Assembly: GCA_000002435.2 (NCBI GenBank)
Contig: CM018793.1
Strand: one strand, 5' to 3'
Origin: Giardia intestinalis
Taxonomy: Eukaryota
DNA: 64,000 bases
Made by a program: the position numbers and the translations under genes. Of the stretch, positions 3,617-50,810 are shown one piece after another. Each line of letters opens with the position of its first letter. Position 1 is the first letter of the stretch. The notes beneath the pieces were generated by a model, which did no database searches, was not told where the DNA came from, and saw only the letters and a list, made by a program, of their open reading frames with translations.

Positions 3617-4540
3617 ATGTTTTCGCCAGTGCTACTCGCAATCGTCGCCGTATCTTGTTCGGCAGACTGCCTATCTGGTGGTAATGCTAATGTTACTAGT
3701 AATAAGGAATTTAATATACAAGTTGGTGGTAGCTCTGCATGCACTACTAATTCATGGATTTACGTTTCTTTCCCTTGCGGGAAGACACTTACTTTCAAAC
3801 AGAAAATTTCAACCTCTCCCACTAGTAGTCCGCTAACTTTTAACTGTAGCCACTTTTATTCGTCTACCAATGATCCCAATTTGCTTTGTGATTTTTATCA
3901 GTGTCGGTCAATTGATGGTCAACCCGCCGTTAAAGCCACTTATAACACTACGCAAAACGCTAAGCTGAAGGCAGGAGAACTTGTTAAAAACGAAGAAAAA
4001 ACTCTCACCCTTAAGATCACGGGGGATCTGACTCCACCTGAGGAGACCGACACCAAGGATAAGAACCTCCTCACTATCGTGATCATCTCTGTGGTCGTGA
4101 TTATCGTCCTTGTCGTCGTCTTCGTTGTGTTCTGCATACTTTGTAAAAAGAAGAGGACGCAGACGAACGCTGACGCCGCGCAGAAGATCGACGCCGCGTA
4201 CAGAGAGCACCCGAAGAACGAAATGCTCATAGACATCGTCAGAACGCAGAAGCGGTATGACGACTCAGAAAACACAGACGAGTTCTACCTAAACATCGGC
4301 GACTCGGGGGCCCTCGCCGTCGCTTCAGACAAGATCAAAACTAGGGGCCCCAAGCATGGAGGGTCTTCCCGGTCCAAGGCCAATAGGTCGCACACTATAG
4401 AGAGCGAAGACGGTAGCTTTATGATATCTGACGGAAAGATGCGTAGCTCATCTCGAGCTTCCTTCCACGATGAAAGCTTTACCATAAACCGCGTCCTCAA
4501 GCCGGCGACGGGGAACCTTGACCTTACAGACAGTGACTAG
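3617..4540 (+). CDS. hypothetical type I membrane protein (signal peptide, Cys-containing ectodomain, one TM, cytoplasmic tail)
   Basis: First ATG at 3617 preceded by aaaaaaa; MFSPVLLAIVAVSCSA signal-like; TM LLTIVIISVVVIIVLVVVFVVFCILC followed by KKKRT stop-transfer. Confidence 0.55.
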   Translation: MFSPVLLAIVAVSCSADCLSGGNANVTSNKEFNIQVGGSSACTTNSWIYVSFPCGKTLTFKQKISTSPTSSPLTFNCSHFYSSTNDPNLLCDFYQCRSIDGQPAVKATYNTTQNAKLKAGELVKNEEKTLTLKITGDLTPPEETDTKDKNLLTIVIISVVVIIVLVVVFVVFCILCKKKRTQTNADAAQKIDAAYREHPKNEMLIDIVRTQKRYDDSENTDEFYLNIGDSGALAVASDKIKTRGPKHGGSSRSKANRSHTIESEDGSFMISDGKMRSSSRASFHDESFTINRVLKPATGNLDLTDSD

Positions 4541-29359: not shown

Positions 29360-29392
29360 TCTTAAAAATTGCTTTGTTTTGATTTATCCGGC

Positions 29393-30118
29393 ATGCTCAC
29401 ATCTCCCAAGTACTACTCACCCGGTGATCCGCTCCTCTTAAGACAAGGCGGAGAGAAGGGAGATATCGGCGAATTAGATACACTGCGCCACAACGTATCC
29501 CAGAGCTCATTTGCAGAGCTACTTAAGTATGCTCCAAATGCGCCCCCGCAGGCAGGAAGGGTGGACTATGACGGAATTATGGCCAGCGTTTTGCCACCAA
29601 GAGGACTCTCTACAAAAGAAGAGCTTGCAGACATGCCCAGGGAAAAGGCCGCTGACAAGGTTATTCCGACTTATGAGCAGCCACCCAAGCGGCCACAAAG
29701 AAATTTACAACACGGAGATCCTCGGTTTATCGGAAAGATCAACCAACTTGAAGTGCAGAGAAATTACGCCTTCATTGGTGAGCTTAGGCGCGAAGAATTG
29801 AAGGAATGCGATGCGCAGTACCGTGCACTTTCTGAGGATACGCCGGAAGAGAAAAGAGAGGCACTCCGTATGAAACTCCTCAAGCTCAAGAGGCAGGTAG
29901 GTGAGATGGAGAGGCGTAAAGCAGAGGAAGACATACGCGAGAAGCTGGTTAAAGCAGAGCTTCGTGCAATCGTACAAGGAAAAAGACCTGATTTCATAAA
30001 GGACAGAGATATCAAAAGGCTCACATCGGAAAGCCTATACTGTGCCAGCGCTGGTACACGTAAGGGCGATAGAAGGCTGCAAAAGGCACGGAGGAGGCAA
30101 CGCTTGTTGACCTTGTAA
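29393..30118 (+). CDS. hypothetical basic coiled-coil protein
   Basis: ORF-track start 29369 is TTG; first ATG 29393; C-terminal charged heptad region and KARRRQRLLTL tail; no domain recognised. Confidence 0.45.
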   Translation: MLTSPKYYSPGDPLLLRQGGEKGDIGELDTLRHNVSQSSFAELLKYAPNAPPQAGRVDYDGIMASVLPPRGLSTKEELADMPREKAADKVIPTYEQPPKRPQRNLQHGDPRFIGKINQLEVQRNYAFIGELRREELKECDAQYRALSEDTPEEKREALRMKLLKLKRQVGEMERRKAEEDIREKLVKAELRAIVQGKRPDFIKDRDIKRLTSESLYCASAGTRKGDRRLQKARRRQRLLTL

Positions 30119-30143
30119 TCGTGCCCAACGTGGATGGCCAATC

Positions 30144-32057
30144 CTAATCATCAATCTCCTTGGTTTCGCCTGTCATGTTGCTGCTAGTATCAAAAGCGCT
30201 GCCATAGTCGACATTCGCGCGACCATATCTATTGTTGCCGCGAGCTGATACCCCCTTGCTGCTATCACTTTTGCTTTCACCGCTTTCGCTGCATGAGTGT
30301 TCTTCTTTAATGTGCCTATTAAGTTGCTCGTCAAGGGACTCTAGCTGTGCACGTGCCTGCTCAATGGACGCAAGGTGTGTGTACTTACTCCAGTAGTAGA
30401 CAGCGTACAGAACACCCACTATACTAGCAAAGATGTCGCCAAAGAAAACTGATGGAAGAAAATCCACGCTGTCTCCAAGGATGAAGCCATAGCACAGAAT
30501 GGAAACTATGCAGACGACAGTTCGCCCTAGAGAGAGGAGCAGTGAAGGAAGCCACTTTTCTTCCAGCTCACATATTATGAGGATGAGATGGTATGGCCCA
30601 GTAATAATAGGCGAGAGCGCAGCAGCCGTAAAAGCCTTTTGCAGCGTAGGAAACATGAGCACCATCTCCTTGGACGCGGTCTCTCCCCACAGCATTCCCA
30701 TTTTTGGTGTCAACATTGTGATCATGGGTCTGGCGAAGAGCATCCCAAAAATACAAAGAAGAGGAGGAATAATAATGGTATGGAGCAAGGATATTATGAA
30801 CAGACGCTTGGTTTTAAGATAAAGGCCACTCCGAAGGGTGTGCATACTCACTACGCGAAACGAGAGGGCAATCGCAACGGGAACGGCACTAAATATAGAG
30901 TATGATCGCATGTAAATTAAATTCGCCAGCCTGTTGTAGAGAATCTTCTGGTGGTTCTCCTTGTCGTAGGTGGCGTTCATTACACAATTGATGAGCAATA
31001 TGCTGAGTGGAATATATGAATAAGTGAGGTAGTTTTGCGGGAAAAATAAGAACATTTTCCTGAGAATCTGTGCCGGTTTTGGCTGCGGCCTGTCTTCCAA
31101 AGCTCTGGACGAGGCTGTGCGATGCCTCGTGCAACAGTTAAATCGTAGAACGCCTTCATGTGAGATCCCGAAGATGGTAACATCGGTAAACAAGAAGATA
31201 ATCCAGACAGAAATGATAAACTGAGAAAGAAGGGACCCCACGGCTGTCCCAGTAAGCGGAGAAATGTACTTGATATCCTTCGGGTCCTGGATAACGTGGG
31301 TGTCGTAGAGATATTGCTGATTATTGTTGAAGGCCTGGATGTAGAAGTACGACATGATCTGGAAGACTTCTGCAAAAGACATTAAGAAAATGTGCCTAGA
31401 GGCATTCAAAATAATTCTATTCTCAAGAATTAAGAACTGCGAAACAAAGATTGAAAATAGACTTGTTAGTGGATCTGCAATGCTAATTAGAAATAAATAA
31501 ATGGAATGATCGGGACGAAAGGAAGAGAGGTCTTTATCTAAGTTGCTGCTTATGCGTTTCGAAAACAGCCCAAGTAGGGGGCCGAGTAGTAGAGCCCACC
31601 CAATCGCGAAGTAAATGGAATAGTGGAAAACCATCTGTGCGGGACCAGTAAACTTCCGGAGGAAGCTATAGACTAAAAGGTTTGCCGCTGCAGCCATCAG
31701 AGCAAGCTCAACAGATTGGAAGAGCACCTTAAGCAGGGGCACATACGTGGCAAAGGCATATGCGCCATCCAACTGCCCAAATGCCATGACACCCGTGTAT
31801 TCCAAAAACCCCATAGCGCCCTCAAAGAGAAACGCAACGGCGCACGGAATTAAGACAGACCATAAAGCAAAAAGGCTATTCCACGAAACAAAAAGAGGAC
31901 AGTCCCGTAGCTGGGCTTCACCCTTCTGCTGGAGAAGATCGTCTGTAGGATCCCTTTTGAGAAGGGTCTGCTCTATTGCGCTAGTAACCGCCAGCCTCTG
32001 CAAGGAATCACACGGCAGGCCCCGCTCCCTTGGCTCCCCCCGTGGTATTGACGCCAT
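30144..32057 (-). CDS. polytopic membrane protein (at least 10 predicted TM helices), family unassigned
   Basis: Repeated 20-25 aa hydrophobic segments; ORF-track start 32159 is TTG; first ATG at 32055-32057. Confidence 0.65.
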   Translation of the reverse strand: MASIPRGEPRERGLPCDSLQRLAVTSAIEQTLLKRDPTDDLLQQKGEAQLRDCPLFVSWNSLFALWSVLIPCAVAFLFEGAMGFLEYTGVMAFGQLDGAYAFATYVPLLKVLFQSVELALMAAAANLLVYSFLRKFTGPAQMVFHYSIYFAIGWALLLGPLLGLFSKRISSNLDKDLSSFRPDHSIYLFLISIADPLTSLFSIFVSQFLILENRIILNASRHIFLMSFAEVFQIMSYFYIQAFNNNQQYLYDTHVIQDPKDIKYISPLTGTAVGSLLSQFIISVWIIFLFTDVTIFGISHEGVLRFNCCTRHRTASSRALEDRPQPKPAQILRKMFLFFPQNYLTYSYIPLSILLINCVMNATYDKENHQKILYNRLANLIYMRSYSIFSAVPVAIALSFRVVSMHTLRSGLYLKTKRLFIISLLHTIIIPPLLCIFGMLFARPMITMLTPKMGMLWGETASKEMVLMFPTLQKAFTAAALSPIITGPYHLILIICELEEKWLPSLLLSLGRTVVCIVSILCYGFILGDSVDFLPSVFFGDIFASIVGVLYAVYYWSKYTHLASIEQARAQLESLDEQLNRHIKEEHSCSESGESKSDSSKGVSARGNNRYGRANVDYGSAFDTSSNMTGETKEIDD

Positions 32058-32199
32058 CACCGCCAACGAACCAGTGCCAAGCGATTGACCGAAAATGAAT
32101 AAATAATAAAAGAGCTGTAAAATTTTACTTTCACGTAAAATTATGCTTATTTTAATCAATCAGTGATCAAGGGTGAATCAATTCGGGGGAAATAAAATT

Positions 32200-32329
32200 A
32201 CTGGTGCCTTGTACCGCATCGTGACGATGTCCGCATGCTGAGGGGTGCGGGTGTGGCGCGCGGTGTCCGGTCGAGGCGGAGTTCTCGCACACATACAGTA
32301 TACACGACTTCCCTATAACTAACACGCAG
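32200..32329 (+). promoter_or_regulatory. 3' half of a split intron preceding the HSP90 C-terminal exon: branch/acceptor motif ACTAACACGCAG at 32318-32329 (upstream extent uncertain)
   Basis: Giardia intron 3' consensus (A/C)CT(A/G)ACACACAG with one deviation, ending in AG exactly where the HSP90 reading frame resumes mid-codon; GC-rich stretch gtgcgggtgtggcgcgcggtgtccggtcgaggcggag upstream could pair with the partner intron half. Confidence 0.6.
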
Positions 32330-33404
32330 GTTTATCACAGACGAATGTACAGATATTGTTCCCGACTGGCTCACGTTCCTCAAGGGCGTGGTCGACTGCG
32401 ACGATCTTCCGCTGAACATCTCCCGTGAGATGCTCCAGAAGAATCGCATCGTCAACACAATCCGCAAGAACCTCATCAACAAGGCTCTCAAGCTCTTCAA
32501 GGACCTCGAGGATGACAAGGACAAGTATGAGACGTTCCTCAAGCAGTTTGGAAAGTCCATCAAGCTCGGTATCCACGAGGACAGCGAGAACCGTGGCAAG
32601 CTCGCCAAGCTTCTGCGCTACTACAGTACAAAGTCCAAGGACAAGCGCACGTCCCTCGACGATTACGTCACCCGCATGCCCGAAAACCAGAAGTCGATCT
32701 ACTACATCACAGGCGACTCTCTCGAGAACCTGAAGGAGTCTCCGTTCCTCGAGAGGTTTAACAAGAAGGGCATAGAGGTTCTGCTTATGGACGAGGCCAT
32801 CGACGAGTATATGACCTCCTCGCTCAAGGAGTTTGAGGGTAAGCAGTTGAAGTGCATAACCAAGGACGGCATCGACCTTGAGCTCACGGAAGACGAGAAG
32901 AAGGAGCAGGAGGAGAAGAAGGAGCGCTTCGCAAAGCTCTGCAAGTACATGAAGGAGGTCCTTGGCGATAAGGTCGAGGGAGTCCGCGTCGGGTGTGATC
33001 GCCTTGTAGACACCCCGTGCATCCTCGTCACCGCAGAGTGGGGCTGGACTGCCACGATGAGCAAGATCATGAAGCACCAGGCGCTGAGAGACGACACTCT
33101 GGGCAGCGTGATGGCCGGAAAGAAGACCCTGGAGCTTAACCCCGACAGCAGCATCATCCAGAATCTCGCCTCTAAGCTCGACGACGACGCAGAGAACCTC
33201 TATGTCAAGGACATCACAACCCTTCTTTTCGAGACGGCCCTTATCCAGAGCGGGTTCGACATTGAGGACACCGCAACCTTTGCCAAGCGCATTCACGCCA
33301 TGGTCCGTGTCAGCCTGGGAGACGACACCGCCGCTGCCCCTGCTAGCGACCTTCCTGCCCTTGAGGAGTGCCATGATGAGGAGGACGTTGACGAAGTTGA
33401 CTGA
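32330..33404 (+). CDS. HSP90: HSP90 C-terminal exon (HspC): middle-domain end + C-terminal dimerisation domain ending MEEVD-like (DEEDVDEVD); N-terminal half not in window
   Basis: [42 protein letters not shown] aligns to human ...[38 protein letters not shown]; coding starts in phase 1 right after the acceptor AG with no in-frame ATG; extremely GC3-rich. Confidence 0.9.
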
Positions 33405-33434
33405 GACTGTGAACTTGTTGTGTTACTTTGTGCT

Positions 33435-36071
33435 TCAGAGCGGCGGGTGCCTGGGTCGCGGCCGGAGGTATCCTGCGTAGTCGGAGACGATCAGCGATAT
33501 GGACTGCATCCCGCTTCGGAGCTGTGTCGCCTCGTCGCTGTACTGGGCGGCTGCCGCATGGGCGGCGTTGCACTCTGTTTCTAATTGTGCTAGAGCTGCA
33601 CGGACGGAATCTAATTGCAACTGAGCTTCGTTAAGCTTGGTCTTTAAGAGCTGTACTTCTGTGTTCTTCAGAGACAGCTCGTTTTCACGCGCCCGAAGGC
33701 ACTGCTCCAAGTTCTCGACCTTGAGACGTGTCTGCTCTTGAATTGTTCTCAATGAGACTATCTCTGTACCACGTGTATCGCTCTCCTGTTGAACACTGCT
33801 AAGCGTCTCCTCAACCTTTTTCAGTTGGAGCTGGAGCTGCTGTCTTACAAGCTTCTCGCCTTGCAGCTCAGATTTGAGTTCCTCGTCAGTCTGTTGAGAC
33901 GACAGCTGACTGTGACTGTGCCGACTGCTGTGGTCAGATTCCTCCAAAGGTACAGGTCTGGGGGGAAGGGCCTGCCGTACTGTCAATTCACGGAGCCCCT
34001 CGACAGAAAGATTGGATAGACAGACAGGAAATCTCGAATTGAACATTCGGATAGCAAGTGTGGCAGCAGACTGGAGGAGACCCTGGTTTACAACAGGCAA
34101 TCTATCAAGATATGATGTTGACGATAGAACAAGGGCGGTGATGCAACTCCCTATTAATCGTATATGTACAAGACCGGGGTGCAGTGGTGCAGGCTTGTGG
34201 CAACCATTGCTTTGTTCATGAGAGCAGTGGGTTTCCTTGCTGTCATAGCGAGCACCCTGGATAAGTTTTGCGCTAGAACTAAGCTCTGAAATGGCGGACA
34301 GCAGAGATTGATCAACTTTGCGCGTGGCTGGAAGAGGCGTACTCAAGGCAGAGCCAGCGTGTGTAGCAAAACAGACCGTATTGAAAATCAGCAAGTCTGA
34401 AATATGTGTGAGAAGCTCCAAAGATCTATCAAGGTGTTCCCAGTAAATACGTTGCATTGTTGTTGTCAAAGTAATAGTTTGTCTTATCAAGGAGTCAATC
34501 TCCTCTGAAGAAAATATATTAACACAAACACTTGTCGCGGTATAGGCTATAAATCGGCCAAGAGTCGATAAAAGAACAAAGTAATATTGCAGCAAAGCAT
34601 TATGTTCTCTTTCGAAGGATGATGGAGATTGATTGGTCAGCCTATTAACGATTGACTCCATTGCTGTGAAGCACCCTTTAAGATTAGCCTTGACAACCTG
34701 AAAAGACATAAGCTTCCCGCCGATCTTCTCTTTGGGAATAGCAAATGTAACTCTGAAGGAAGATATAGGCGACAGTGTCACGCGGTACAGGTGTGCGAGG
34801 AACATGGCCGAGTAGGCGGAGTATCCTTTACAGTCGGCTATCTCGCTGAAGAGGAGCTCGTATCCCCGAGCTCTGATGAACTCATCTATGAAGGCAGTGT
34901 GCATCTGTTTAAAGGGCATAGCTGAGAATGCCGATGAGACGTCCCCACTCCCCATTAGAGAAAGGAAAAGCAATACGCAGTACGGCCTGTTTAGTGGAGA
35001 GCAGTCGTTCAGAGCAAACCGAACGAGTATCGAGACTCGCTGGACGCCATCTTGCGTAAGCTTGGCAAATGCTAAAGGTGTCTTGCTGGACATCTGCAAA
35101 GGTGAGAACACAACGGTAAAGAGATAAAATGACACTAGGATATCTTGGAAGATTGCCCTACTAGATGCGAAGGTTTGCGCGAAGATGTGCTTGATGGCGG
35201 GTTCGCAGGTACCATTCTCGGCACCTGTAGGAGGGGGGTCCAGCGTAAATGTAACTAGCTTCTTGAGGATGTTACTCAGAAACATTGGAGGAATGTGTTC
35301 GGTGCTATTGCTTAGGAAATACCGTAAGACGTATTGATACACTATGGTAGTATACGTGTAGTTTCTCCCTTCCAGCAGCGTGCTTAGTTTGGTGGATGCG
35401 TAAAGGTTTGCTGTCTGTCTGAAATTAAACAAGAGCGCGAGTGATACTGTCAACTCAATTAAATGGCAGATTAGCTGTTTCTCCGACGCAGCCAGAGTTT
35501 GCTTTGTCGTAGATAGAAGCTTCTCAAGAGTGGCCAAGCAGGTATATGAAAGACTGGATACGGCGCAGTACAAAGAATGCAAAGATGGATATGTGTATTC
35601 GTCAAAAGTATCCATGTGCAGTGGCCCGTGTTGCAATCTAATCATGAGTAAGACACTGATAAAAAGCCGAAGTAGCGCCGGAGAAAAATCTAAAGTAGGA
35701 AGCATTCCACTGGAAGCCTCATTCTGGATAGATATGGCTGAATTAAGCAGAGAGTTCACCACTAGTTTTAGAAGTAGAAACAGGGTGGTATAATCCACTA
35801 CAGGTAATGCTTCTTTCAGCACGAAGGCTAGGAAATGAGCCATTTTTTCACTAGTAAGAAAGATGGGGTGTGCGCAAAGGACCTTAACTAGTTTTTGGAG
35901 CACTGGAACAGTGAATTGAAAAATGCTATCTGCACGGCACATGAGCGCAACATTTGCTAGTAGGGCGTCAGCAACAGCAGAGCAGTCCTCCATGGTTGTG
36001 CGGGACCGCTCTAGTTTGTCCAGCAGGTCCAAATACCCACCAAGATTCATTTTTATATATTCAGCCTCCAT
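33435..36071 (-). CDS. hypothetical protein, 878 aa, C-terminal coiled coil
   Basis: ATG at 36069-36071; C-terminal about 200 aa heptad-rich (LQLQLKKVEETLSSVQQESDTRGTEIVSLRTIQEQTRLKVENLEQCLRARENELSLK...). Confidence 0.65.
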   Translation of the reverse strand: MEAEYIKMNLGGYLDLLDKLERSRTTMEDCSAVADALLANVALMCRADSIFQFTVPVLQKLVKVLCAHPIFLTSEKMAHFLAFVLKEALPVVDYTTLFLLLKLVVNSLLNSAISIQNEASSGMLPTLDFSPALLRLFISVLLMIRLQHGPLHMDTFDEYTYPSLHSLYCAVSSLSYTCLATLEKLLSTTKQTLAASEKQLICHLIELTVSLALLFNFRQTANLYASTKLSTLLEGRNYTYTTIVYQYVLRYFLSNSTEHIPPMFLSNILKKLVTFTLDPPPTGAENGTCEPAIKHIFAQTFASSRAIFQDILVSFYLFTVVFSPLQMSSKTPLAFAKLTQDGVQRVSILVRFALNDCSPLNRPYCVLLFLSLMGSGDVSSAFSAMPFKQMHTAFIDEFIRARGYELLFSEIADCKGYSAYSAMFLAHLYRVTLSPISSFRVTFAIPKEKIGGKLMSFQVVKANLKGCFTAMESIVNRLTNQSPSSFEREHNALLQYYFVLLSTLGRFIAYTATSVCVNIFSSEEIDSLIRQTITLTTTMQRIYWEHLDRSLELLTHISDLLIFNTVCFATHAGSALSTPLPATRKVDQSLLSAISELSSSAKLIQGARYDSKETHCSHEQSNGCHKPAPLHPGLVHIRLIGSCITALVLSSTSYLDRLPVVNQGLLQSAATLAIRMFNSRFPVCLSNLSVEGLRELTVRQALPPRPVPLEESDHSSRHSHSQLSSQQTDEELKSELQGEKLVRQQLQLQLKKVEETLSSVQQESDTRGTEIVSLRTIQEQTRLKVENLEQCLRARENELSLKNTEVQLLKTKLNEAQLQLDSVRAALAQLETECNAAHAAAAQYSDEATQLRSGMQSISLIVSDYAGYLRPRPRHPPL

Positions 36072-36123
36072 CCACGCTTACTAACCTGTTCCCTGCGCAG
36101 GGAAAAGAATCATAGAAATTAAA

Positions 36124-36891
36124 ATGGGGCTATACACACATAACAATGCAGTAAGTTTCATAGCAACCGGATTGTCAATAATCTTATATGGCACGCTTTT
36201 TGGCTTTGTCAAGCGTGATCCAACCTCTTTAAGAGTAGGCCTTGAGGCGTGCATGCGCAAAGGCGTCAAGTTCATTGGTTGCATTAAAACTTTAGAGAAA
36301 GAGGAGAGGCACTCTGTCTTCTTTTTGTTAGCCATTGTATGCTTTGCAGCTGTGCTGGCGATACTAGCTATACTCATGTCTATTTTCTATTGTTGTTGCT
36401 GCCGAAGTATTAGGAGTGCAAGATATCTGCACAGGGCGATTACGGGAGTCACAACAGTGGCAGTGTTTGATGTTGTATCATTTATCACGTCCTCGCTCAT
36501 CTATTATAAATACGATTCGGCAAATAGTAGTGGAGTAATTGTGAGCAATTCTGCTGGTACTAATGCATACATAATTGCTAGATACACAGGGCTGGCTATG
36601 GTGTGCATTAGCAGCGCATGGGTAATAACCATAGTGATAGGGTCGCCCTTAGCATCAACAAACAACCTGCTAATGAAGGCGCTCACCATGATCATTGGGG
36701 CCTGTTCGATATTCTTCATCCTGGCGATCATTATGGGCACGGATGCCGCCCATTTGTTACGTCACCTATCTGATTATCGCCATCAGGCCAAGGAGATGGG
36801 ATGTGCCATGTCCGCTGCTGCTATCGTTGTATACGTATTTACTTTTCTTGATGCCTGTCTATGCATCACAGAAGGTACTACAAAGTCGTAG
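36124..36891 (+). CDS. hypothetical 4-TM membrane protein with juxtamembrane CCCC motif
   Basis: Four hydrophobic helices; IFYCCCCRSIRS after TM2. Confidence 0.5.
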   Translation: MGLYTHNNAVSFIATGLSIILYGTLFGFVKRDPTSLRVGLEACMRKGVKFIGCIKTLEKEERHSVFFLLAIVCFAAVLAILAILMSIFYCCCCRSIRSARYLHRAITGVTTVAVFDVVSFITSSLIYYKYDSANSSGVIVSNSAGTNAYIIARYTGLAMVCISSAWVITIVIGSPLASTNNLLMKALTMIIGACSIFFILAIIMGTDAAHLLRHLSDYRHQAKEMGCAMSAAAIVVYVFTFLDACLCITEGTTKS

Positions 36892-49459: not shown

Positions 49460-50714
49460 TTAGATGTCGGCCGCCATGAGTAAAGATACACCAGCAAGGA
49501 TCCATTTTGCGGGCGGCTCCCTCGTCTTGATCTGGAACGTCCATATGTAGGTGGGGCCGCGCCTCTTTGTCTTGTATACAGGGCAGTCGTAGACGTCCTT
49601 GAGGTCCGCCTTGTCTGCGGTCACTGCCTTTAAGTAGATTGGCGGAAGCTCTGGGAAGAGGTCCTTAAGGATGGAGTCCCTGATACAACCGCCCTTCTTG
49701 TCCCAGCGAGCGCCCTCCATGTAGAGGCCGTAGATATACGCACCCTCTCTTGGCGGAGCGGTGATTTCCGAGAGCTCCTTTTTCGTCACATCGGTGATGA
49801 GAGCCATCTTGTCGAGAGGCCACTGGTTCATCCTGGCAGTTGACTGGAGGACGGCGCGCAGGAAAGATTGCGGGTTGAAAAGCGCTGGAAGCCAGACAGC
49901 CTTTGGAAGATTGAGATCAGATGACCACGAAACCAGCTGGTCGCAGCGTTGTATCATGTCCTTCAACCACGGGCCAAGAGACTTCATACTCGGATATGCA
50001 ACGGCTTCCCATTTAGCAGGCACGACATCCAGGTACATGGACTGCATGAGGGCCTCCATTTGCTCGGAGATGGTCAAGTCGCCCTTGAGGCCCAAAGCAA
50101 GTTCCTTGAGAGACGACTTTATTGTGGAGAGCAGCTCATTCATGCGCCCACACTCCTGTAGACAGACACTGACGTAGGGTGTCCGCTCCTCCACTCGATC
50201 GGTAATCTCCAGCATGTCAAAGTTCTCGGGGAGCATATCCAGGATGTCTTCCAACTGTGCCTTGCAGCGGTCCTCGCGAGAGAGTTCGCCACTAGTGCTT
50301 GTGGCCGAGGTGCGCGGCTGCAACTGCATAAGCATCATGAAAAGGGTGTTTGACTGAGTAGTAAGGAACATGATCTCCGCGTTGGGGTGGAGACCATACA
50401 TCTTCGGCGATTCCTCAGGAAGCGCCTCAGCAATGTATGCCTTGTAGCCGTCGTAGCTCATTGGGGACGGCACAGGGAAGTCTGGGGCGAAGAACTTCCC
50501 GTCTTCAAAGAGAGCATCCGACATCAAGGAGTCCATAAACGAGCGCATGAGCCGGCGATCCAGATCATCGCCGACGTGTCCCCCGTAGAAGATGTCGCAA
50601 AACATGTATTTGAGGTCGTCCCAGGGGATTTTGGTGTTATTTTCTAGGTAGTTGAACAAGACATCCTTGCATATGGTCAGGTCGCCATTGTTGAAGTTGT
50701 AGGGGACGTTCCAA
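49460..50714 (-). CDS. dynein heavy chain, C-terminal exon only (about 418 aa), begins mid-codon after a splice acceptor
   Basis: WNVPYNFNNGDLTICKDVLFNYLENNTKIPWDDLKYMFCDIFYGGHVGDDLDRRL matches axonemal DHC WNIPYEFNESDL...[22 protein letters not shown]; later VYDCPVYKTKRRGPTYIWTFQIKT and KWILAGVSLL are DHC C-terminal motifs; no in-frame ATG at the start (ORF-track start is TTG). Confidence 0.85.
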
Positions 50715-50810
50715 CTGTGTGTTAGTATGTGTCTGGTCAGTAAAGCTGTGAGTAGCAGTATGCCATTTTAAATTTTTGCTGCCATTTTTGCTGCCATAGA
50801 GATTTACATT
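50715..50810 (-). promoter_or_regulatory. 3' half of a split intron preceding the dynein heavy-chain exon: perfect ACTAACACACAG branch/acceptor motif (50715-50726 on the minus strand); upstream extent uncertain
   Basis: Plus-strand CTGTGTGTTAGT at 50715-50726; AG lies exactly at the point where DHC homology begins. Confidence 0.65.
50759..50798. repeat. short tandem repeat (gc)tgccat(ttt) x3 in the spacer between the DHC exon and the glycerol kinase gene
   Basis: gtatgccattttaaatttttgctgccatttttgctgccatag. Confidence 0.4.

Follow-up and report, generated by a model that had tools for sequence, protein, structure and literature searches.

The trans-splicing of Giardia HSP90 was reportedly described in 2011, by Nageshan et al. 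in J Biol Chem and by Kamikawa et al. in Curr Biol, and the other split introns of Giardia are said to be covered also by Roy et al. 2012 in MBE. In the published system of G. lamblia/intestinalis, the HSP90 gene is split into HspN and HspC (GL50803_98054/GL50803_13864; GenBank AB561868/AB561869), and a 33-residue junction segment of the protein is contributed by what had been the "5′ UTR" of HspC (PMC4006730). HspN and HspC are separated by 777 kb, both on chromosome 5, and their intron halves carry "26 nt complementary sequences" (PMC8494341). A cleavage motif is present in all trans-intron 5′ halves, and the 3′ ends of the HspN precursor map to this motif (PMC3510501). According to these two papers (PMC8494341, PMC3510501), HspN and HspC lie far apart and each gives rise to its own precursor transcript. 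In Giardia muris, both the trans-introns and the cleavage motif have been conserved (PMC7641422), and no trans-splicing has been found in Spironucleus (PMC5224939). The joining of the HSP90 halves has since been confirmed by RNA-seq (PMC5224939), with 55,177 reads across the junction in 22 data sets (Table 1 of that paper), by proteomics (PMC4006730), by biochemistry, and by chromosome-conformation studies. The locus analyzed here is the same one and encodes an identical protein; the 33-residue junction segment and the 26-nt complementarity match the published ones, and there is no difference of substance. The trans-spliced HSP90 is thus already published, in the reference organism, and our window is a rediscovery.

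Other split introns of Giardia reside in different host genes (two in dynein heavy chain beta, and those of dynein heavy chain gamma and the p68 helicase; PMC5224939). They share with HSP90 the extended GTATGT site, the fused branch/acceptor CT[A/G]ACACACAG, complementary intron halves, and the cleavage motif TCCTTTACTCAA in the 5′ half. Spliced-leader trans-splicing in kinetoplastids, nematodes, and dinoflagellates is, like the HSP90 case, spliceosomal; it involves two separately transcribed RNAs and gives a Y-shaped product rather than a lariat. However, it adds one common noncoding leader to many mRNAs, whereas HSP90 joins two specific coding exons by gene-specific pairing of the intron halves. 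The fragmented group II introns of organelles, such as Chlamydomonas psaA and plant mitochondrial nad1, nad2, and nad5, resemble HSP90 in having been broken by rearrangement, in being reassembled by RNA-RNA pairing, and in joining coding exons. They are, however, self-folding ribozymes without spliceosomal motifs, whereas the HSP90 intron is nuclear and has spliceosomal 5′, branch, and 3′ signals.

We analyzed a 64-kb stretch of DNA (64,000 nt; the window). A preliminary description had proposed that it carries the C-terminal half of HSP90 as a stand-alone exon, joined to HspN by spliceosomal trans-splicing, and the partner locus, the pairing of the intron halves, the exon junction, and the literature all agree with this proposal. 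We put the probability at about 97% that 32330-33404 is the second exon of a trans-spliced HSP90 and that the ~130 nt upstream of it are the 3′ half of a split spliceosomal intron. No evidence contrary to this reading was found. The features of the locus are as follows.

30144-32057, minus strand: gene for a 637-aa polytopic membrane protein without a Pfam family (called as a gene in identical public contigs)
32058-32199, no strand assigned: AT-rich divergent intergenic region, 34% G+C (composition)
32200-32282, plus strand: intramolecular hairpin predicted for the 5′ portion of the 3′ intron half (RNAalifold, six G. duodenalis lineages)
32278-32304, plus strand: intermolecular pairing segment GGAGTTCTCGCACACATACAGTATACA, complementary to TGTATGCTGTATGTGTGCGAGACTCC in the HspN 5′ intron half
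32305-32317, plus strand: single-stranded spacer of 13 nt between the pairing segment and the branch motif (read from the sequence)
32318-32329, plus strand: branch/acceptor motif ACTAACACGCAG, with presumed branch A at 32322 and acceptor AG at 32328-32329
32330-33404, plus strand: HSP90 exon 2 (HspC), 357 codons from 32331, stop TGA at 33402-33404
32331-32429, plus strand: "junctional" segment of 33 codons, coding, 5′ of the first ATG

The exon encodes residues 348-704 of the 704-aa cytosolic HSP90. When the complete Giardia Hsp90 was compared with the window by tblastn, residues 348-704 matched 32331-33401 with 100% identity over 357 aa, and residues 1-347 had no match anywhere in the 64 kb; within the window, no N-terminal HSP90 half lies within ~31 kb on either side of the exon. 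The translation does not differ at any residue from XP_001705478.1 and EFO62466.1, nor from positions 348-704 of KAE8305296.1 and BAJ33526.1, both of which are 704-aa Hsp90 proteins. It ends in ...EEDVDEVD, the C-terminal acidic MEEVD-like tail that marks cytosolic eukaryotic HSP90, and is 53-58% identical to plant, fungal, and animal HSP90. The 3′ end of HspC also matches a published reverse primer, GAGGACGTTGACGAAGTTGACTGA. A public Giardia contig present in at least 20 sequencing runs is identical to the window over 29388-36404 (0 mismatches in 7,017 nt), and other assemblage-A contigs diverge from the window by ~1.4% around the locus. Judged by these sequence matches, the source is Giardia duodenalis assemblage A, WB-like.

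The homology had been described as starting abruptly at 32330, with neither an ATG for the exon nor an N-terminal HSP90 half in the window. The start of the tblastn match at residue 348 bears out the former, as does the match to the Pfam profile PF00183 (HSP90; E = 1.5e-141), which starts mid-domain and covers profile positions 163-507 of 518; tblastn and the reading of the frame agree with the latter. The codon phase given in the preliminary description (phase 1) needs correction. Only G32330, the third base of the split Val347 codon GT|G, lies here, with GT supplied by HspN, so the intron is of phase 2 by the usual convention. Upstream, the HspC frame is closed by an in-frame TAA at 32316-32318, four codons before the first Phe, and the first in-frame ATG (32430) lies 33 codons inside the HSP90 homology. 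Homology that starts mid-protein without a start codon, together with coding constraint that reaches the AG, is among the features expected of the exon of a split intron.

A truncated gene that lacks a start codon and has a stop four codons upstream could also be a decaying pseudogene fragment, left after a rearrangement broke HSP90. The frame, however, is intact over 357 codons, and the proteins of assemblages A and E are 100% identical, with 78 synonymous and 0 nonsynonymous codon changes between them. Only 2 residues differ from assemblage B, and the cluster of Giardia sequences contains no other C-terminal half of a cytosolic HSP90. We regard decay as having next to no chance of being the explanation.

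It has also been assumed that no exons are joined and that the locus encodes a C-terminal HSP90 fragment on its own, starting at the internal ATG (32430), as in the original 324-aa annotation of GL50803_13864. The frame does hold an ORF, of 324 aa when counted from the ATG and of 338 aa from a GTG, and several genomes annotate it in this way. However, such a protein would lack the ATPase domain, and the Pfam match begins in the middle of the profile. Moreover, homology and purely synonymous divergence extend 33 codons upstream of the ATG, as far as the AG. In these 33 codons, the synonymous/nonsynonymous codon differences are 7/0 against assemblage B, 4/0 against assemblage E, and 15/0 against G. 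muris (26 and 0 in total over the three comparisons), which excludes the old annotation from the ATG. A 15-residue peptide sequenced by MS/MS comes from 5′ of the first ATG, and the catalytic Arg has been assigned to the junction segment (PMC4006730); the peptide corresponds to 32388-32432 of the window. The joined sequence is moreover present in a public contig (L015) from an RNA or DNA library. The internal-ATG reading is thus already contradicted, and we consider it very unlikely. Since the junctional segment lies 5′ of the first ATG, it can be translated only after the exons have been joined.

The preliminary description had recognized a Giardia-type branch/acceptor motif at 32318-32329, directly before the HspC exon. 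This assignment holds: ACTAACACGCAG occurs as a single copy on both strands of the window and is identical in G. muris at 12 of 12 positions, and the next 38 nt upstream are only 18% identical. The published fused branch/acceptor consensus is CT[A/G]ACACACAG, with one mismatch permitted (PMC10711314, PMC5224939), and CTAACACGCAG at 32319-32329 fits it with one mismatch (G at −4). When the consensus was relaxed to CTRACMMRCAG, there were 2 matches in 128 kb (both strands of the window) against 0.54 expected from dinucleotide shuffles, and both sit exactly where a conserved protein begins mid-domain. By analogy to UACUAAC, A32322 is the presumed branch nucleotide. The 13-nt spacer upstream of the motif contains the pyrimidine run CTTCCCT (32308-32314), and the corresponding spacer of G. 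muris is of comparable length (11-14 nt). A polypyrimidine tract in HspC has been mentioned before, quoted as CCTCCCT (PMC8494341), which differs from the CTTCCCT of the window.

As a separate observation, RNAduplex pairs the 5′ splice-site region GUAUGUUAUG (L001 4041-4052) with the branch/acceptor region UAACUAACACGCA (32316-32329) in all four lineages. This is probably a by-product of a GU-rich sequence meeting an AC-rich consensus.

The window contains a second trans-spliced 3′ exon, at 49460-50726 on the minus strand, with the motif ACTAACACACAG at 50726-50715 and the exon starting from T50714. Its ORF of 417 codons (50713 to 49463, stop at 49462-49460) encodes the C terminus of a dynein heavy chain; Pfam finds a complete Dynein_C domain in it (E = 1.7e-97) and an AAA_lid_11 match that starts at position 26 of the 140 in the profile (E = 1.4e-31). 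The exon fits, from its sequence features, the published last exon of DHC-beta (GL50803_8172), which lies 16 kb from HspC (PMC8494341). An AT-rich initiator-like element is found only ~50 nt upstream of it. Measured from this element to the AG, the DHC-beta 3′ half is much shorter than that of HspC, and its motif is a perfect match to the consensus.

The preliminary description had further predicted an HspN locus in which the ATPase domain is followed by GTATGT, and a chimeric exon junction. We found both. At the HspN locus, identified through the annotated HspN protein (L001-L006), the ATPase-domain exon ends in ...ATGGTCAAGAAAGT and is directly followed by GTATGTTATG; in L001 the exon ends at 4040 (...AAGAAAGT), and GTATGTT begins at 4041. 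The extended 5′ splice site GTATGT(T) also follows the HspN exon in assemblages B and E and in G. muris. The GT of HspN and G32330 together give GTG, which is Val347 of the full-length Hsp90. The exact junction AAGAAAGT|GTTTATCACAGACG is present, along with the complete 704-aa ORF, in the public contig L015 (run SRR3602120; RNA or DNA library), the left part of which differs from HspN at 4 of 2,540 positions and the right part from the window at 0 of 2,575; reads across the junction are also published (PMC5224939). The flanks of L015 are the upstream neighbor of HspN and the downstream neighbor of HspC, as expected if the assembly followed reads of mature mRNA, for a run that is an RNA or DNA library. 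Our literature search found no mention of the library type of SRR3602120.

Could the two exons instead be joined in cis, within one very long HspN-to-HspC transcript that contains a giant intron? Both halves are on chromosome 5 (PMC8494341), and nothing within the window excludes a long precursor. However, a conserved AT-rich, promoter-like block lies directly 5′ of the 3′ intron half, and the HspN half carries the cleavage motif ~36 nt past the 5′ splice site, where the 3′ ends of the HspN precursor map (PMC3510501). In L001 the 12-nt motif is at 4076-4087 (36-47 when counted from the start of the HspN intron half); the final 3 pairs of the pairing region fall within it, and assemblages A, B, and E as well as G. 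muris all have it. The next gene after HspN, encoding a replication factor C (RFC) subunit, starts 106 nt past the splice site, and the HspN and HspC loci have different neighbor genes. In G. muris, the HspN copies are on CM016925 and CM016928 and HspC is on CM016927; located on different chromosomes, they cannot be joined by cis-splicing in that species. We therefore judge a giant cis intron to be highly improbable and retain trans-splicing of two separate transcripts.

The G. muris genome contains two identical copies of the HspN exon with its 5′ intron half (L025 1497-2570 on CM016925.1 and L026 1497-2570 on CM016928.1). Their identity begins 4 nt before the ATG and stops within the cleavage motif (TTTCCTTTACT); outside this block the sequences are unrelated, so that the block matches the expected ends of a processed half-transcript. 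This suggests RNA-mediated copying of an unspliced half-gene, or a tightly bounded gene conversion. The main text of the paper on the G. muris genome does not report the duplication.

Complementarity between the HspN intron half and the stretch preceding the acceptor had been named as a check. By local alignment, the two halves form a helix of 26 bp at 32278-32304, composed of 22 contiguous pairs at 32283-32304 (one of them G:U), a bulged T32282, and 4 pairs at 32278-32281; this agrees with the 26-nt complementarity in the literature (PMC8494341). When the HspN half was scanned for uninterrupted helices against all 128,000 window offsets on both strands, the top score was 52 (22 bp) at 32283, the runner-up scored 34, and the 99.99th percentile was ~27, which makes the intron-half helix by far the best in the 64 kb. 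The variants seen among assemblage A, an A variant, and assemblage B change G:C or A:U pairs to G:U and break no pair. The pairing segment has 46% G+C. RNAduplex was of little use for this purpose: with the 110-nt HspN tail against 200-nt window tiles, it extended the duplexes too far, across large loops, and discriminated poorly (−92 kcal/mol, compared with −84 for the tile that came next and −95.7 for one shuffle), and we therefore used the local alignment and the uninterrupted-helix scan instead.

In G. muris, GCGTCAGCCGCTG in the HspN intron half (L026 2536-2548) is the perfect complement of CAGCGGCTGACGC in the 3′ half (L022 2462-2474) over 13 bp. This sequence is unrelated to the G. duodenalis pair, although it has the same relative position and geometry. 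The helix lies 12 nt from the 5′ splice site and 13 nt from the branch motif in G. duodenalis, and across both species these distances are 10-12 nt and 11-14 nt. Complementarity between unrelated sequences shows that pairing was kept while the sequence was replaced, and we take this to be the strongest comparative evidence for pairing of the intron halves. We rely here on the exact 13-mer complement because cross-species duplex energies are not a clean control of specificity, as a duplex of −44 kcal/mol is also predicted between the G. muris half, which is GU rich, and the AC-rich segment of G. duodenalis.

A different pairing segment had been suggested in the preliminary description, namely the GC-rich stretch at 32240-32280. 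That the stretch is GC rich is correct (78% G+C compared with 49% for the window), but the pairing role does not stand, since the real segment is at 32278-32304 and the two overlap only at 32278-32280. We rejected pairing of 32240-32280 with HspN because the duplex, for which the only HspN partner left is the sequence beyond the cleavage motif, was weaker than those of shuffles in assemblages A, B, and E (z = +0.7 to +1.6). With moderate confidence, the GC-rich stretch appears to be the 3′ strand of a conserved intramolecular hairpin, predicted at 32200-32282. In this fold, 32200-32223 pairs with 32259-32282 (helix 1) and 32227-32236 pairs with 32245-32254 (helix 2). RNAalifold gave 31 pairs over the six G. 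duodenalis lineages, which are closely related, with 96.8% of cells paired and 3 pairs with compensatory changes on both sides; the covariation score was reached in 4 of 500 shuffles and the double-change count in 14 of 500. The stability of the hairpin is z = −1.5 to −3.0 against mononucleotide shuffles, and that of the whole 139-nt 3′ half is unremarkable against dinucleotide shuffles (z = +0.93), so that the case for the hairpin rests on covariation and not on energy. Nine of the pairs are G:U in this strand, which makes the fold specific to the HspC sense RNA.

The conserved hairpin could be functional, in exposing the pairing segment, in protecting the 5′ end, or in sensing temperature, although we consider this a speculative and rather unlikely proposal. 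If it is functional, the hairpin might hold the pairing segment (32283-32304) and the branch site single-stranded, or it might shield the 5′ end of the HspC pre-mRNA. It might also render trans-splicing of this heat-shock gene temperature sensitive, because the last 4 intermolecular pairs and the base of the hairpin (32278-32282) compete with each other. G. muris lacks an equivalent hairpin and has no room for one in its 3′ half; since it copes without, the hairpin would belong to the lineage-specific accessories rather than to the core mechanism. The papers covered by our literature search do not describe a hairpin at 32200-32282.

The intergenic region upstream of the HspC exon was compared among the lineages. 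Assemblages A, B, and E and a fourth lineage share the block AAAATTATGCTTATTTTAATCAATCAGTGATCAAGGG.GAATCAATTC...GGGAAATAAAATTAC almost unchanged, and the sequence downstream of it diverges. Initiator-like elements have been noted upstream of HspC (PMC4006730). We infer that 32058-32199 is a promoter/initiator region shared by the minus-strand membrane-protein gene and the HspC pre-mRNA, with a putative role and a putative start site. The membrane-protein gene had been reported as a divergent neighbor 272 bp upstream, and the spacer between it and the HspC exon (32058-32329) is indeed exactly 272 nt. The 637-aa protein shows eleven hydropathy peaks, two of them overlapping, and thus about 10 hydrophobic segments, and had no match to a Pfam family; the gene is context and is outside the HSP90 system. 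At the HspC locus of G. muris (L022 1829-2500), RRP36 comes directly before HspC and ends ~100 nt from the exon, and the 637-aa gene is absent. In G. duodenalis (window 29369-32329), RRP36 and HspC are separated by the 637-aa gene, and the longer 3′ intron half has the predicted hairpin.

The HSP90 exon and intron half are overlapped on the minus strand by two long antisense ORFs, 32198-32608 (136 aa) and 32319-33374 (351 aa). The shorter one matches in position the "hypothetical ORF GL50803_31692" (PMC4006730). Both resemble the shadow ORFs of a gene with strong codon bias more than they do genuine genes.

According to the trans-splicing model, the HspC pre-mRNA would be transcribed alone from the AT-rich region at 32058-32199, with a putative transcription start there, and exon 1 (HspN, residues 1-346 and two bases of codon 347) would be transcribed from a locus 777 kb away (PMC8494341). 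The HspN 5′ intron half, which starts with GTATGT, would be cut at the 12-nt motif TCCTTTACTCAA (PMC3510501). The two halves would then anneal in vivo over the 26 bp whose complementarity is observed, TGTATGCTGTATGTGTGCGAGACTCC with 32278-32304. In the annealed form, the helix would be flanked by the 5′ splice site at a distance of 12 nt and by the branch motif at 13 nt, and this product would resemble a short Giardia cis intron with an inserted stem. The spliceosome would take the branch A from ACTAACACGCAG and splice at the AG (32328-32329), and ligation would give ...AAGAAAGT|GTTTATC..., by which Val347 (GT|G) and the frame would be restored. The joined mRNA would encode the full 704-aa Hsp90, including the 33 residues of 32331-32429, which have no start codon of their own.

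Some relatives have an HSP90 that is 67-74% identical to the Giardia protein and continuous across the Giardia split site (...KLMVKKVFITDEC...), namely L027 5001-7109 (Logan SRR29980984) and the proteins P0002-P0004 and P0137-P0138. The frame of L027 is interrupted by a single stop, at a position occupied by Q, L, or M in relatives, and L027 is therefore probably a hexamitine diplomonad that reads TAR as Gln. The uninterrupted HSP90 of these relatives is consistent with a split specific to Giardia.

The HSP90 locus could be recognized from raw sequence, and the tests proposed for it came out as predicted. What may be new is limited to the hairpin conserved within the 3′ intron half, the precise placement of the pairing segment, and the side observations given above. 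Split spliceosomal introns that rejoin the halves of an essential chaperone mean that genome rearrangement can break a gene without killing it and that RNA pairing can substitute for the continuity of an intron.
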